Sequence record: MZ375356.1
Reading direction: 5' to 3' (one strand)
DNA length: 64,000 nucleotides
From: Escherichia phage T4
Part shown: in pieces, positions 4,928 through 60,694 of the stretch
How positions within the stretch are numbered: position 1 is the first letter of the stretch
Layout of the letters: each line of letters begins with the position of its first letter
Notes under the pieces: model-generated
Seen by the model: the letters and a program-made list of their open reading frames with translations, nothing else
Database searches by the model: none
What the model was told of the DNA's origin: nothing
Position numbers and translations under genes: made by a program

Positions 4928-5481
4928 ATGATAATGATACTTCATTAGAAGTAACGCTTAGTGCATCATAATCTGTCGCGGTTACTTGGGCTACGCATTT
5001 AATTCTTTTTACTCCACTTGTAGTTGGAGTATAGCTAAATGTAGAGTTAGTTTCTCCACCAACTTGTGAATCATCTACATACCACTGATACGTAGCAGAT
5101 GCTCCATCAGGTTGAGAAGCTAAGGCAGCAGTAAATTGAACTGGGGTTCCAATCACTCCAGCCGCAGGACTAGCAGGAGTTACGGCTAAGGTAGTCGTCT
5201 GTGTCTTATTTTTAACTGTGATAGTTGTTGTCGCTTCAGCCGTTTCCGGGCCTCCTTCAGAAAGTGTATTTGTTGCAACTACTTTAATAGTCTTTTGACC
5301 GGCAGGTCCTTTTAGCATAACTAAAAGTTGCTTCAGCTCCATCTTGTGGAACATTATCTACGCTCCAAGCATATGTAATAGTTCCGCCTCCAGTTTGACC
5401 ACTGGGTGTAGCAGTAAACTGCTTAGTTTCATCAATAACCCCTGTAGGTGTTTTAGGAGTTATATCAACTGTAAAAGTCAT
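4926..5481 (-). pseudogene. hoc: Hoc outer capsid protein, frameshifted after ~55 codons and lacking C-terminal half
   Basis: ORF 5284..5481 begins MTFTVDITPKTPTGVIDETKQFTATPSGQ then changes frame; ORF 4926..5354 continues with Ig-like domain sequence and stops 83 nt before 24.3; total ~190 codons versus 376 aa remembered for T4 Hoc. Confidence 0.8.
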
Positions 5482-6219: not shown

Positions 6220-6748
6220 ATGTACCACTTTGTATATGAAACAACAAATCTAATAAATGGTAAAAAGTATATAGGAAAGCACTCTACTGATGACTTGAAT
6301 GATGGTTACCTTGGTTCCGGTAAGGCAATTCAGCAGGCTATAAAGAAATATGGTGAAAACAATTTCTCTAGAACAATACTAAAAGAGTTTAAAACTTCCG
6401 AAGAAGCGTACATGTATGAAGAAGAAATTATAACTCCTGAACTAATAAAAAGCAAAAATTATAATATGAAACCTGGTGGAATTGGTGGAATTGGTGGAAT
6501 TGTTATGACTACAGATGTTATAGCAAAGATGAAAGAATCTTCCGCTAAAAGATTTGAAAACTCACCGGGCACGGTATTAGGTAAAACTTGTTACTAATGG
6601 AACTAAAAATATTTTTATTAAACCTGGAGAACTTGTTCCAGAAGGATTTGTAAAAGGGATGGTTCATCCTAATAGAAAGTCCAGAAAAGGATGTAAAGTC
6701 AAACCGACTACCACAGGAACTTTTTGGGTCAATAATGGCGCAAAATAA
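6220..6748 (+). pseudogene. segE: GIY-YIG homing endonuclease SegE-like, at least two frameshifts
   Basis: ORF 6220..6597 has GIY-YIG motif (MYHFVYETTNLINGKKYIG); Seg-type C-terminal motif (IFIKPGELVPEGFVKGM) continues in the next frame to 6748; a second copy of that motif is in the third frame running into uvsW. Confidence 0.7.
6475..6501 (+). repeat. 9-bp tandem repeat (GGTGGAATT)x3 inside segE
   Basis: three perfect tandem copies encoding GGIGGIGGI. Confidence 0.9.
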
Positions 6749-6839
6749 ATTAATACAACCAGACGGTATTATTCCCGACGGATTTATTAAAGGTCGTCTC
6801 ATGAAAAGAGATTCTAAAGGCAAATTTAGTAAGGCAATT

Positions 6840-8348
6840 ATGGATATTAAAGTACATTTTCACGACTTCAGTCATGTACGCATCGATTGTGAAGAGAGCA
6901 CGTTCCACGAATTAAGAGATTTCTTTTCGTTTGAGGCCGATGGATATAGATTTAATCCTCGCTTCAGATATGGCAACTGGGATGGACGAATCCGTCTTTT
7001 AGATTATAATCGTCTTCTTCCATTCGGCTTAGTCGGGCAAATTAAAAAATTCTGTGATAATTTTGGCTATAAAGCCTGGATTGACCCACAAATTAACGAA
7101 AAAGAAGAATTATCAAGAAAAGATTTTGATGAATGGCTTTCTAAATTAGAAATCTATTCAGGAAATAAAAGAATTGAACCGCACTGGTATCAAAAAGATG
7201 CAGTGTTCGAAGGATTAGTTAATCGTCGTAGAATTCTTAATCTTCCAACATCTGCAGGTAAATCTTTAATTCAAGCTTTGCTTGCGCGATATTATTTGGA
7301 AAATTATGAAGGTAAAATTCTTATCATTGTTCCAACAACTGCTCTGACAACTCAGATGGCTGATGACTTCGTCGACTATCGTTTATTCAGCCATGCAATG
7401 ATAAAGAAAATTGGTGGCGGAGCATCAAAAGATGATAAATATAAAAATGATGCACCAGTCGTTGTTGGTACATGGCAAACTGTAGTAAAACAACCGAAAG
7501 AATGGTTCTCACAGTTTGGAATGATGATGAATGATGAATGCCATCTTGCTACAGGAAAAAGTATTTCATCTATCATATCAGGTTTAAATAACTGCATGTT
7601 CAAATTCGGTTTGTCTGGTTCATTACGTGATGGCAAAGCCAATATCATGCAGTATGTTGGAATGTTTGGTGAAATATTTAAACCAGTAACGACTTCTAAA
7701 TTAATGGAAGATGGACAAGTAACTGAGCTAAAAATTAATAGTATTTTTCTTCGCTATCCCGATGAGTTCACTACTAAATTAAAGGGAAAAACTTACCAAG
7801 AAGAAATAAAAATTATTACTGGGCTTAGTAAAAGAAATAAATGGATCGCTAAATTAGCTATTAAGCTTGCGCAAAAAGATGAAAACGCTTTTGTCATGTT
7901 TAAACATGTATCGCATGGTAAAGCTATTTTCGATTTAATTAAAAATGAATACGATAAAGTTTATTACGTATCAGGGGAAGTTGATACCGAAACCCGCAAT
8001 ATAATGAAAACCTTAGCTGAAAATGGTAAAGGAATAATTATAGTAGCTAGTTATGGTGTATTTTCTACTGGTATTTCAGTTAAAAATCTGCATCACGTTG
8101 TTTTAGCGCACGGTGTTAAATCAAAAATCATTGTATTACAAACAATCGGTCGTGTATTACGTAAGCATGGTTCTAAGACAATAGCAACAGTCTGGGACCT
8201 CATAGATGACGCAGGCGTCAAGCCAAAATCTGCTAATACGAAAAAGAAATATGTTCATTTGAACTATCTTTTAAAACACGGCATTGATCGTATTCAGCGC
8301 TACGCAGATGAAAAATTTAATTACGTAATGAAAACAGTTAATTTATAA
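6840..8348 (+). CDS. uvsW: UvsW RNA-DNA/DNA helicase (helicase core)
   Basis: ORF containing MDIKVHFHDFSHVRIDCEES and the LNLPTSAGKS Walker A motif; listed ORF 6735..8348 begins at an upstream in-frame ATG. Confidence 0.9.
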   Translation: MDIKVHFHDFSHVRIDCEESTFHELRDFFSFEADGYRFNPRFRYGNWDGRIRLLDYNRLLPFGLVGQIKKFCDNFGYKAWIDPQINEKEELSRKDFDEWLSKLEIYSGNKRIEPHWYQKDAVFEGLVNRRRILNLPTSAGKSLIQALLARYYLENYEGKILIIVPTTALTTQMADDFVDYRLFSHAMIKKIGGGASKDDKYKNDAPVVVGTWQTVVKQPKEWFSQFGMMMNDECHLATGKSISSIISGLNNCMFKFGLSGSLRDGKANIMQYVGMFGEIFKPVTTSKLMEDGQVTELKINSIFLRYPDEFTTKLKGKTYQEEIKIITGLSKRNKWIAKLAIKLAQKDENAFVMFKHVSHGKAIFDLIKNEYDKVYYVSGEVDTETRNIMKTLAENGKGIIIVASYGVFSTGISVKNLHHVVLAHGVKSKIIVLQTIGRVLRKHGSKTIATVWDLIDDAGVKPKSANTKKKYVHLNYLLKHGIDRIQRYADEKFNYVMKTVNL

Positions 8349-8373
8349 GGGCTTCGGCCCTTTGGAGAAAAAG

Positions 8374-8604
8374 ATGTTACTAGAATTTAAACAATTTCTT
8401 TATGAAGCTTCTATTGATGAATTTATGGGTAAAATTGCCTCTTGTCAAACATTAGAAGGTTTAGAAGAACTTGAAGCTTATTATAAGAAAAGAGTCAAAG
8501 AAACTGAATTAAAAGATACTGATGACATCTCTGTGAGAGATGCTTTGGCAGGAAAAAGAGCTGAATTAGAAGATTCAGACGATGAAGTAGAAGAAAGCTT
8601 TTAA
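8374..8604 (+). CDS. uvsW.1: UvsW.1, separated C-terminal piece of UvsW
   Basis: 76-codon ORF with RBS GGAG 10 nt after the uvsW stop; acidic C-terminal tail. Confidence 0.7.
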   Translation: MLLEFKQFLYEASIDEFMGKIASCQTLEGLEELEAYYKKRVKETELKDTDDISVRDALAGKRAELEDSDDEVEESF

Positions 8605-9075: not shown

Positions 9076-9489
9076 TTATTTTCCAGCCTCAAATGCTCGC
9101 ATGTCTTGAATATGCTTAATAGCAAATCCACGTGATTTAATAGCATCAAGAGCTCCGCTACAGAAATCTAATAAAATCCCCCAATACTGCAACGAGGTAT
9201 CAACCTTTAAAACATCCTTATCCGCTGATAGAACTGTCTTCATTTCTGATTTCTCGTAACGATCCATACTAAATTCATCACCATCTCCTCGTCCCGAGTA
9301 GTAGTCTAATCTAGCTTTAAGAGCAACTTTTTTCTGTGCTTCAATTCTAAGCATTTCCTTTTTAATACTTGAATGCTTATTAAGCCATTTACTATATAAC
9401 ATCACATTATTAGCTGCTTCATACTGTAATTTAGTCGAATCTATAAACACATCTTTCTTCAATTCTTCTTGAAGATCTTCTAATCTCAT
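9076..9489 (-). CDS. uvsY: UvsY recombination mediator
   Basis: 137-aa ORF, size and position match T4 UvsY. Confidence 0.9.
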   Translation of the reverse strand: MRLEDLQEELKKDVFIDSTKLQYEAANNVMLYSKWLNKHSSIKKEMLRIEAQKKVALKARLDYYSGRGDGDEFSMDRYEKSEMKTVLSADKDVLKVDTSLQYWGILLDFCSGALDAIKSRGFAIKHIQDMRAFEAGK

Positions 9490-9505
9490 ATTGTTCTCTA
9501 TTCAA

Positions 9506-9549
9506 TTGTTATTGGTTGTTATTGGATGTTATTGGATGTTATTGGATGG
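9506..9549. repeat. tandem decamer repeat (TTGTTATTGG/ATGTTATTGG) x4 plus partial copy
   Basis: seen directly; lies in the uvsY upstream region between uvsY and gene 25. Confidence 0.9.
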
Positions 9550-9585
9550 ACTTAGATTCATTATACCACGTTTTAACGTGAAGCA

Positions 9586-9984
9586 TTATACTCTATTACT
9601 GGAAGCCAGCTGCAGTTTTATCTGCTCAATATCATCAGGATTATCGATGACCGAAAAGCGTATTTCTACTATCAGAGTATAATCGTCATAAACGGGTATC
9701 ACATTAACTGCTAATTTATCAATACGTGGCTCATAGTTTCTTACTGCGCTTTCGATATTGCGTTCAACCGTGTCAGCAGTAAGAGGAGTCATATTTTCAA
9801 AAAGCTGGTCTGATAAATCACATCCAAATTCAGGGTCAAACGGTCTTGAACCTTTTCTTGTTGTAATAATTCCCAAAAGACTGTTTTTAATTGACCTTAA
9901 TCCAAGCGATCTGGAAACGTCTTTGTTCCAATCCATTTTCATTTCCGGGTCAATATCAGAATAAAGCTTATTAATATTTGCCAT
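9586..9984 (-). CDS. 25: baseplate wedge protein gp25
   Basis: 132-aa ORF, size and position. Confidence 0.9.
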   Translation of the reverse strand: MANINKLYSDIDPEMKMDWNKDVSRSLGLRSIKNSLLGIITTRKGSRPFDPEFGCDLSDQLFENMTPLTADTVERNIESAVRNYEPRIDKLAVNVIPVYDDYTLIVEIRFSVIDNPDDIEQIKLQLASSNRV

Positions 9985-13063: not shown

Positions 13064-14829
13064 AAAAGCCACAAGAAATGCAAACGATGCGTAGAAAAGT
13101 TATTTCAGATAATAAACCAACACAGGAAGCGGCTAAATCCGCTTCTAATACTTTATCTGGGCTTAATGACATATCTACGAAATTGGATGATGCTCAAGCT
13201 GCTTCTGAATTAATAGCTCAAACTGTCGAAGAAAAATCGAATGAAATAATTGGAGCAATTGACAATGTAGAAAGCGCAGTGAGTGATACTACTGCCGGTT
13301 CTGAGTTAATTGCTGAAACTGTCGAAATTGGCAACAATATTAATAAAGAAATCGGTGAATCGCTCGGAAGCAAATTAGATAAATTAACAAGTTTACTAGA
13401 GCAAAAAATCCAGACAGCTGGAATTCAACAGACTGGAACTAGTTTAGCTACGGTTGAAAGCGCTATTCCTGTTAAAGTCGTTGAGGATGATACTGCTGAA
13501 TCTGTGGGTCCTTTATTACCAGCTCCTGAAGCAGTTAATAATGATCCTGACGCTGATTTTTTCCCTACCCCTCAGCCAGTTGAGCCAAAGCAAGAATCAC
13601 CAGAAGAAAAACAGAAAAAAGAAGCATTTAACTTAAAATTATCTCAAGCTTTAGATAAATTAACGAAGACTGTTGATTTTGGATTTAAAAAATCCATTTC
13701 AATTACTGATAAAATATCAAGCATGCTATTTAAGTACACCGTCAGTGCTGCTATTGAAGCTGCTAAAATGACTGCAATGATATTGGCTGTTGTTGTTGGA
13801 ATAGACCTTTTGATGATTCACTTTAAATACTGGTCAGATAAATTTTCAAAAGCCTGGGATTTGTTTAGTACAGACTTTACCAAATTCTCTAGCGAAACCG
13901 GAACTTGGGGTCCTTTATTACAGAGCATCTTTGATTCTATTGATAAAATTAAACAACTTTGGGAAGCGGGAGATTGGGGTGGATTGACAGTAGCTATTGT
14001 TGAAGGGCTTGGAAAGGTTCTTTTTAATTTAGGTGAACTTATTCAATTAGGTATGGCTAAATTATCTGCAGCAATTCTTCGAGTCATTCCTGGTATGAAG
14101 GATACTGCTGATGAAGTAGAAGGAAGAGCATTAGAAAATTTCCAAAATTCTACTGGAGCATCTCTCAATAAAGAAGACCAAGAAAAAGTAGCAAATTATC
14201 AAGATAAACGAATGAATGGAGACCTTGGCCCAATAGCAGAAGGACTAGACAAAATCTCTAACTGGAAAACTCGTGCATCTAACTGGATTCGTGGTGTAGA
14301 TAATAAAGAAGCGCTGACTACCGACGAAGAGCGTGCGGCAGAAGAAGAAAAATTAAAGCAACTTTCACCGGAAGAAAGAAAAAATGCTTTAATGAAGGCT
14401 AATGAAGCTCGTGCTGCGATGATTCGTTTTGAAAAATATGCCGATTCAGCTGATATGAGTAAAGACTCAACGGTTAAATCAGTTGAAGCTGCCTATGAAG
14501 ACCTTAAAAAACGGATGGATGACCCGGATAATAATTCACCGGCAGTTAAAAAAGAACTTGCTGCTAGATTTTCTAAAATTGATGCTACTTATCAAGAGCT
14601 CAAGAAAAATCAGCCTAATGCCAAACCTGAAACTTCTGCTAAATCACCAGAAGCGAAACAAGTCCAGGTGATTGAAAAGAACAAAGCACAGCAAGCTCCT
14701 GTTCAACAAGCATCTCCTTCGATCAATAATACTAATAATGTTATTAAGAAAAATACTGTCGTTCATAATATGACACCTGTAACGAGCACGACTGCTCCTG
14801 GTGTATTTGATGCGACTGGAGTTAATTAA
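13060..14829 (+). CDS. 29: baseplate hub / tail length determinator gp29
   Basis: 589-aa ORF, ATGA overlap with gene 28 stop. Confidence 0.9.
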   Translation: MKKPQEMQTMRRKVISDNKPTQEAAKSASNTLSGLNDISTKLDDAQAASELIAQTVEEKSNEIIGAIDNVESAVSDTTAGSELIAETVEIGNNINKEIGESLGSKLDKLTSLLEQKIQTAGIQQTGTSLATVESAIPVKVVEDDTAESVGPLLPAPEAVNNDPDADFFPTPQPVEPKQESPEEKQKKEAFNLKLSQALDKLTKTVDFGFKKSISITDKISSMLFKYTVSAAIEAAKMTAMILAVVVGIDLLMIHFKYWSDKFSKAWDLFSTDFTKFSSETGTWGPLLQSIFDSIDKIKQLWEAGDWGGLTVAIVEGLGKVLFNLGELIQLGMAKLSAAILRVIPGMKDTADEVEGRALENFQNSTGASLNKEDQEKVANYQDKRMNGDLGPIAEGLDKISNWKTRASNWIRGVDNKEALTTDEERAAEEEKLKQLSPEERKNALMKANEARAAMIRFEKYADSADMSKDSTVKSVEAAYEDLKKRMDDPDNNSPAVKKELAARFSKIDATYQELKKNQPNAKPETSAKSPEAKQVQVIEKNKAQQAPVQQASPSINNTNNVIKKNTVVHNMTPVTSTTAPGVFDATGVN

Positions 14830-40944: not shown

Positions 40945-41037
40945 TTAGCAGTATTGCCGATAGTTGTATAGTACCATAAAGCTTTATGCTTGTAAACCGT
41001 TTTGTCCATAAAGCTTTATGCTTGTAAACCGTTTTGT
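40945..41037 (-). promoter_or_regulatory. early-type promoter region with perfect 32-bp tandem duplication (40974..41005 and 41006..41037)
   Basis: each copy carries GTTTAC -35 and a GCTTTA MotA-box-like motif; only the proximal copy is followed by GGTACTATACAACTATC; element family also at 57760 and 60818. Confidence 0.5.
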
Positions 41038-59341: not shown

Positions 59342-59484
59342 AAATTTACCATACTAGTGAATGTAGTGCCAATAACATCAGAAATGAAAAGCACGACTTG
59401 AATTAATCCGAACATTACTCCGTAATATAGTGCTACCAATAAAGCAGCAAGGGCTAATGAATAGCCCAAGATTTTCTTAATCAT
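59332..59484 (-). CDS. small membrane protein (50 aa; positional 52.1)
   Basis: ORF MIKKILGYSLALAALLVALYYGVMFGLIQVVLF..., hydrophobic. Confidence 0.4.
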   Translation of the reverse strand: MIKKILGYSLALAALLVALYYGVMFGLIQVVLFISDVIGTTFTSMVNLCN

Positions 59485-60566: not shown

Positions 60567-60694
60567 TTTACACCATTCCAAATTGTTTCAACCACGGATT
60601 TTAAACCATTTTGATGAATATCCATTCCTACTACCGCTGAAACCTGTGCAACCCACCACGCACAAGCAATAAGTACAGAATTCAAAATTTTCAT
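60563..60694 (-). CDS. small hydrophobic peptide (43 aa; ndd.x cluster)
   Basis: ORF MKILNSVLIACAWWVAQVSAVVGMD... Confidence 0.3.
   Translation of the reverse strand: MKILNSVLIACAWWVAQVSAVVGMDIHQNGLKSVVETIWNGVK

Follow-up and report, generated by a model that had tools for sequence, protein, structure and literature searches.

A tandem decamer array in the oriF unwinding element of a laboratory phage T4 lineage is probably a tolerated copy-number expansion

The intergenic region between uvsY and gene 25 carries a head-to-tail array of 10-bp units in the window, by which we mean the whole 64,000-nucleotide stretch of record MZ375356.1 that was analysed. The uvsY coding sequence (9076–9489, minus strand) encodes a 137-aa protein identical to that of wild-type T4 (e.g. 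KJ477686), and the coding sequence of gene 25 (baseplate wedge; 9586–9984, minus strand) is found directly upstream of the uvsY promoter, in agreement with the interval to which a preliminary description of this DNA had assigned the array. PuvsY, the MotA-dependent middle promoter that serves as the oriF promoter, has its -10 element, TATAAT, at 9560–9565 on the minus strand (labelled TATA_box in M77695). A MotA box, AATGCTTCA, was located by pattern match at 9579–9587 on the same strand ("mot box" in M77695), 13 bp upstream of the -10 element and overlapping the stop codon of gene 25 (9586–9588). The spacing conforms to the rule for MotA-dependent middle promoters, in which a MotA box (a/t)(a/t)(a/t)TGCTTtA is found 12 ± 1 bp from -12TAtaaT-7. 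A combined sigma-70 promoter and terminator scan of 9300–9800, which by its nature cannot detect a MotA-type promoter, returned one weak promoter-like site (in gene 25) and no terminator.

With transcription starting at approximately 9553, as judged from the position of the -10 element, the 5' untranslated leader of uvsY would span 9490–9553 on the minus strand and coincide with the unwinding and R-loop zone of oriF. Read in the uvsY sense, the order of elements is AATGCTTCA, 13 bp, TATAAT, GAATCTAAGTC, three copies of CATCCAATAA, one copy of CAACCAATAA, CAATTGAATAGAGAACAAT and ATG. The leader is 64 nt long in the window compared to 44 nt in wild-type T4, and the array makes up 40 of the 64 nt. 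Aligned to reference T4, the promoter, both uvsY and the leader flanks show 100% identity, and NC_000866, to which the window flanks are identical, annotates oriF(oriuvsY) here, at 115321; the earlier placement of the array at oriF (ori-uvsY) was thus correct.

The primary deletion and R-loop mapping of oriF is reportedly that of Menkens and Kreuzer in 1988 and of Carles-Kinch and Kreuzer in 1997. According to the review by Kreuzer and Brister (PMC3016281), whose wording is followed here for the boundaries, the minimal origin comprises about 100 bp, consisting of the promoter and a downstream unwinding element (DUE), the latter being the uvsY leader region. The transcript from the middle-time, MotA-dependent promoter stays annealed to its template within the DUE as a persistent R-loop, the RNA priming leading-strand synthesis and the displaced strand letting the helicase load (PMC3016281). 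Heterologous unwinding elements can replace the oriF DUE, R-loop formation is independent of specific sequence, and in vitro a preformed R-loop in a DUE suffices for replisome assembly, with only replisome proteins needed (PMC3016281). The array is physically inside this zone, and the repeat would be part both of the DNA unwound and of the RNA hybridised at oriF.

By direct reading of the plus strand, (T/A)TGTTATTGG is repeated four times at 9506–9545. Units 1 and 2 (9506–9515 and 9516–9525) read TTGTTATTGG, units 3 and 4 (9526–9535 and 9536–9545) read ATGTTATTGG, and a partial unit, ATG(G), follows at 9546–9549 (ATG at 9546–9548). On the uvsY-sense (minus) strand, 9506–9525 correspond to the two wild-type units, CCAATAACAA twice, an exact two-unit allele shared by 14 T4-type records, and 9526–9545 to two extra units with the sense sequence CATCCAATAA (hereafter T-type), which are not found in reference T4. 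Tandem Repeats Finder (TRF) reported 9507–9548 with a period of 10, 4.2 copies, 96% matches and a score of 77. As TRF run on shuffled sequence proved a poor null (maximum score 81 in 60 shuffles, periods of at least 7), a lag self-match statistic was used instead: allowing at most one mismatch, the lag-10 self-match is 33 nt at the array, whereas 40 shuffles that preserved the dinucleotide content of the window gave a longest match of 16 nt at any period from 7 to 15 (mean 12.4). Of the 9-mer core CCAATAACA, 0.78 occurrences are expected in the window and six are found, four inside the array and two isolated at 59369 and 60121. The array is far beyond chance, and the four tandem decamers of the preliminary description are borne out by reading, TRF and shuffles alike.

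The same description had taken four copies for the T4 state, and the comparison that it proposed with the T4 reference and other T-even phages gave a different picture. In alignments, reference T4 and clone T4_3t3 have two units, the window four and OL964745 (Mutant Escherichia phage T4 clone T4_7t1) five, while the relatives RB14, fPS-90 and BF15 have one (GTCC-ATCCAATAAC-AATTG). Relative to NC_000866 the array region contains a 20-bp insertion, the placement of which is ambiguous by about 12 nt within the array, and relative to OL964745 a 10-bp deletion. The two units of wild-type T4 themselves duplicate CCAATAACAA exactly, in tandem. No flanking base differs among the T4 sequences with two, four and five units; whole-unit length differences with identical flanks between near-identical genomes, the mark of a slippage-type tandem repeat, are thus what is found. 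Variable copy number among nearly identical isolates is also the sequence half of the observation that the preliminary description had set against a role for the repeat in origin activity.

The survey was extended to larger collections. In 500 phage records matching 9300–9800, the match spans 481 bases in T4-type records and 471 in nearly all others, compared to 501 in the query, and only T4-type records reach at least two units; other Tequatrovirus records have one unit, three of them by alignment and the rest as judged by match length. A 33-mer specific to the two-unit allele is matched in full by 14 records only, all T4 or T4-identical isolates (among them T4T, RB55, RB59, the KJ4776xx strains and OL964735), with OL964745 as a fifteenth, partial hit (88% match). 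A 30-mer requiring at least three T-type units matched OL964745 alone among 50,697 phage records. All five uncultivated T4-like contigs in IMG/VR with the same flanks have one unit, and only one- and two-unit spacings occur among the matches listed for UvsY-encoding contigs. Multi-unit scans of IMG/VR and JGI metagenomes returned unrelated loci and no natural T4-like expansion: four loci with at least two units in IMG/VR, all in unrelated contexts, and seven with at least three units in the metagenomes, all minisatellites in unrelated contigs of 41–52% GC. The latter (L025–L031, JGI/ENA) are non-phage contigs with 3 to about 10 tandem CCAATAACAT units, unrelated to T4, and four of the seven stem from sample Ga0126342. 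Judged from these records, the four-copy state is not wild type, wild-type T4 having two units. Neither the sequence nor the copy number of the repeat appears to be needed, the count being one unit in relatives, two in T4 and four or five in the two laboratory clones.

Over 64 kb, only 5 substitutions and 43 small indels separate the window from OL964745, with which it is colinear to the record's end, while 136 differences, including approximately 59 deletions of 1–3 nt, set it apart from NC_000866. On this genome comparison we regard the window as a sister clone of T4_7t1 from the CRISPR/Cas9 iterative genome-reduction (CiPGr) lineage. The OL9647xx records are CiPGr mutants that went through hundreds of transfers (Yuan et al. 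2022; PMC9825161). The phages were grown on Cas9 with spacer libraries, the spacers being designed within genes and known essential genes being left out; fitness rose in some of the T4 mutants, and over 1,300 deletions of 1–2 nt that had not been planned were seen, in T4 only (PMC9825161). The accessions next to OL964745 bear the title "Mutant Salmonella phage seszw/selz clone ..." and contain progressively smaller genomes. The clone names presumably give transfer hundreds (3 for the 300th, 7 for the 700th); T4_3t3, which keeps two units, comes from the same experiment.

Several other features of the window mark this lineage. The approximately 59 deletions of 1–3 nt mostly remove TA, AT, TT or AA outside homopolymers (e.g. 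at 1658, 1970, 5316, 6592, 9069, 22049 and 24057). They fall mainly in non-essential ORFs (segD, hoc, segE, uvsY.-1, 30.x, cd.x, I-TevI, frd.x, segG, arn.x, ndd.x and rIIB), and essential genes contain 3-nt in-frame deletions, e.g. gene 29 at 14530. The small deletions show no enrichment at canonical SpCas9 cut junctions (9 of 59 against 12 ± 3 expected), and Cas9 cutting was rejected as the source of this spectrum. Two larger deletions are common to the window and T4_7t1, one of about 570 bp inside hoc (reference 110,195–110,766; window 4932–4939) and one of about 340 bp from ndd.2a to ndd.5 (reference 166,506–166,847; window 60628–60637), the latter with a 10-bp overlap (microhomology) at its junction. 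The uvsW region (6735–8604) contains a 537-aa ORF followed by a separate 80-aa UvsW.1 ORF; the annotation of NC_000866, a record that itself flags sequence discrepancies in this region, gives a single fused product of 587 aa, and in other T4 records the two lengths are 502/503 aa and 76 aa. In the lineage, the N-terminal extension of UvsW follows a 2-nt deletion at the segE/uvsW junction (reference 112,671), and the 537-aa ORF is lineage-specific, being otherwise found in OL964745 only.

Since the clones of this lineage come from de novo assembly of short reads with SOAPdenovo, the true number of units could be one higher or lower. Exact periodicity extends over 32 nt in the window and 42 nt in T4_7t1, lengths that can cycle at small k, and a de Bruijn assembly that mis-traversed the stretch would make four versus five units (or three) no true difference. 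We consider such an artefact quite unlikely: the flanks are perfectly colinear, and the junction between one T-type unit and the next (...AATAACATCCAAT...), represented in the expanded array by the k-mer AATAACATCCAATAACATCC, is absent from wild-type T4. At least one extra unit must therefore be real and present in the reads.

Short direct repeats at an origin could also act as a protein-binding array, as the preliminary description had suggested. In an iteron-like form of this reading, an initiator or some other sequence-specific protein would bind the decamers one helical turn apart. The period of 10 bp does correspond to such a turn, the array does lie at an origin, and T4 oriE has 12-nt direct repeats of unknown role (PMC3016281). 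Iterons (those of T4 oriE, and plasmid R6K gamma and pSC101-type iterons) are likewise short direct origin repeats with approximately helical-turn spacing. The oriF array differs from them in having no known cognate binding protein, no conserved copy number and contiguous rather than spaced units, and in lying within a transcribed leader for which foreign sequence can be substituted. By eye, no MotA box, DnaA box or IHF consensus was found in the decamer unit. On the plus strand AATTGTTAT resembles the SELEX RNA consensus reported for RegA, but a RegA site was rejected, as AATTGTTAT is antisense to uvsY mRNA and there is no plus-strand gene here.

Another T4 R-loop origin offers a further comparison. 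oriG/ori(34), in gene 34, maps to about 47094 and resembles oriF in having TGCTTCA, 13 bp and TATAAT (47190–47165, minus strand) with a downstream unwinding zone; unlike oriF, it has neither a tandem repeat nor CCAATAACA downstream. Repeats are therefore not a shared feature of T4 R-loop origins. The absence of the motif from oriG speaks against sequence-specific binding at oriF, as does its near-confinement to the array in the window, where only the two isolated copies lie elsewhere. Furthermore, multiple copies are not conserved among related phages, nearly all relatives having one unit and T4 two, and the DUE can be swapped for heterologous elements, R-loop replication in vitro proceeding without an origin-specific binding protein (PMC3016281). 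The suggestion of a binding array thus found no support; copy number, as read from the records compared, largely refutes it, and we regard it as exceedingly improbable.

The preliminary description had further proposed an unwinding element. Its location stands, being inside the published DUE, but the repeat itself has only a mild excess of A+T, and its thermodynamics neither favour nor disfavour an RNA:DNA hybrid. GC content is 31% in the array and 30% in the leader compared to 36% in the window, and the duplex stability of array-centred windows of 20–60 bp falls at the 16th to 33rd percentile. The least stable 40–60-bp windows of the leader are at about the 10th percentile, a figure that leaves aside supercoil-dependent destabilisation. 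With the nearest-neighbour tables of Sugimoto 1995 (RNA:DNA) and Allawi-SantaLucia (DNA), as implemented in Biopython, each unit has a hybrid-minus-duplex ddG of -0.01 kcal/mol (28th percentile). Essentially no structure is predicted for the leader RNA or for either DNA strand on its own (MFE -0.5 to -1.3 kcal/mol, z-scores near 0), the sense strand has a G-free run of 47 nt that is unexceptional for the AT-rich T4 genome, and the predicted accessibility of the Shine-Dalgarno–ATG region is 0.66–0.67 whether one, two, four or five units are present. Across composition, hybrid energy, folding, ribosome-binding site accessibility and the comparison with oriG, no functional signature specific to the repeat or to its copy number was found. 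These properties fit a region that needs only to be unwound, to hybridise and to stay unstructured.

ColE1-type R-loop origins depend on a specific RNA structure and a G-rich/C-rich hybrid anchor, unlike the oriF leader RNA, which is unstructured, G-free and thermodynamically neutral. What the two have in common is a persistent promoter RNA–DNA hybrid that is processed into a leading-strand primer (PMC3016281). Leaders of comparable composition were also encountered elsewhere: in two unrelated IMG/VR contigs, L013 (approximately 9088–9140) and L016 (approximately 945–975), CCAATAACA is tandemly repeated directly upstream of a Shine-Dalgarno sequence and ATG, in L013 three to four times. These cases hint at a recurring type of repeated leader, rich in CA and poor in G, in phage mRNAs, although the four matches to the 18-base pattern may be chance.

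Other tandem changes in the window place the oriF array in context. A 9-bp array, TGGTGGAAT (6474–6502), has 3.2 copies compared to 2.2 in reference T4 and T4_7t1, the gain being in-frame and inside segE. A perfect 32-bp tandem duplication, CCATAAAGCTTTATGCTTGTAAACCGTTTTGT twice (40974–41037), lies between gene 32 and frd.3 (reference approximately 146,852–146,883); it is absent from reference T4 and T4_7t1 and is the top-scoring tandem repeat of the window (TRF score 128). The 64 kb contain about 20 short tandem arrays, of which the oriF decamer alone has gained more than one unit and alone is changed in both the window and T4_7t1.

Being the only multi-unit gain, and altered in both clones, the array could reflect selection rather than drift. 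A longer DUE and R-loop zone, a longer unstructured uvsY leader, or both, would then have been favoured under Cas9 double-strand breaks, either through more frequent oriF firing by way of a longer helicase-loading zone or through more UvsY from a G-free, CA-rich leader. UvsY is a recombination mediator needed for double-strand-break repair, break pressure was chronic over hundreds of transfers during which some T4 mutants became fitter, and the leader is indeed unstructured and free of G over 47 nt. Against this reading stand the predicted constancy of ribosome-binding site accessibility across copy numbers and the neutrality of the repeat for hybrid formation, together with a duplex only mildly below average stability. 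The two clones also share ancestry and provide no independent recurrence, T4_3t3 still has two units, and natural relatives function with one. An adaptive origin is hence rather unlikely in our view; if true, it would make DUE length a tunable dial for an R-loop origin.

Minihomology repair mostly gives deletions, not duplications, which counts against an origin of the array as a Cas9 by-product, i.e. a cut in or near it that was repaired with misalignment, the product being kept for its weakened target site. This escape route would nevertheless account for new units of an unexpected type. Wild type has the PAM TGG directly after the 20-mer TGTTATTGGTTGTTATTGGA. In the expanded allele TGT comes after this 20-mer (9507–9526), and the copy that does adjoin the PAM carries a T>A mismatch at a distance of 11 nt from it, whereas an expansion with A-type units would leave the PAM site intact. 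The lineage was, moreover, grown on Cas9 with spacer libraries. On the other hand, the array is intergenic, while spacer design was confined to genes and skipped those known to be essential; two other NGG protospacers over the array are unchanged; a single PAM-distal mismatch would be a weak escape at best; and the small deletions of the lineage are not concentrated at cut junctions either. Cas9 escape is accordingly very unlikely to account for the expansion.

We consider the array to be probably a tolerated slippage or duplication expansion of a 10-bp tandem repeat in the sequence-nonspecific oriF DUE and uvsY leader of a long-passaged laboratory mutant. Over the hundreds of serial transfers of this Cas9-challenged, genome-reduced T4 lineage, the two extra units would have arisen through replication with misalignment or through unequal recombination. 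oriF is described as a recombination hotspot in the titles of cited papers, a status that may add to local instability. Slippage was the third option in the preliminary description and is the best of the three, since copy number varies with identical flanks; the founding unit, on the other hand, does not look like a product of simple slippage. The new units read ATGTTATTGG and differ from the exact wild-type unit TTGTTATTGG, whereas simple slippage predicts a third TTGTTATTGG, and the founding event therefore needs a special misalignment. From the sequence, this could have been a one-mismatch misalignment in which nascent ...TTATTGGATG paired on ...TTATTGGTTG, or alternatively one guided by a 2-nt microhomology. 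The ancestor shared by the window clone and T4_7t1 may have acquired its first extra unit of the CATCCAATAA type in a rare founding event of this kind; as T-type units are present in both, the event most likely preceded their split. With an exact repeat of 20 nt or more then in place, ordinary slippage would have added or removed units, and the later steps of the expansion do fit simple slippage. The expansion would persist because the region tolerates changes in length and sequence, the leader stays unstructured and the ribosome-binding site is unaffected. Against the expansion reading stands the fact that only two expanded clones are available and that, sharing ancestry, they do not amount to independent recurrence.

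In displaying whole-unit differences between near-identical genomes with identical flanks, the oriF array is like the variable-number tandem repeats and slippage-prone simple repeats of phage genomes. Phage contingency loci have been described as frame-switching homopolymer tracts in a preprint that does not mention the oriF site; the oriF array, by contrast, is a non-coding 10-mer with no known phenotype.

The oriF element is known and annotated, and the five-unit sister allele is already in GenBank. The four-unit allele thus differs in copy number from an origin and leader that are already known, comes from a laboratory mutant with a long history of passage, and in itself matters little. For genome scans it serves as a warning that features of this window are not to be taken for wild-type T4 biology. 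Taken with its relatives, it forms a natural allelic series, identical in its flanks and with one, two, four and five units, at the R-loop origin that is best understood in T4.
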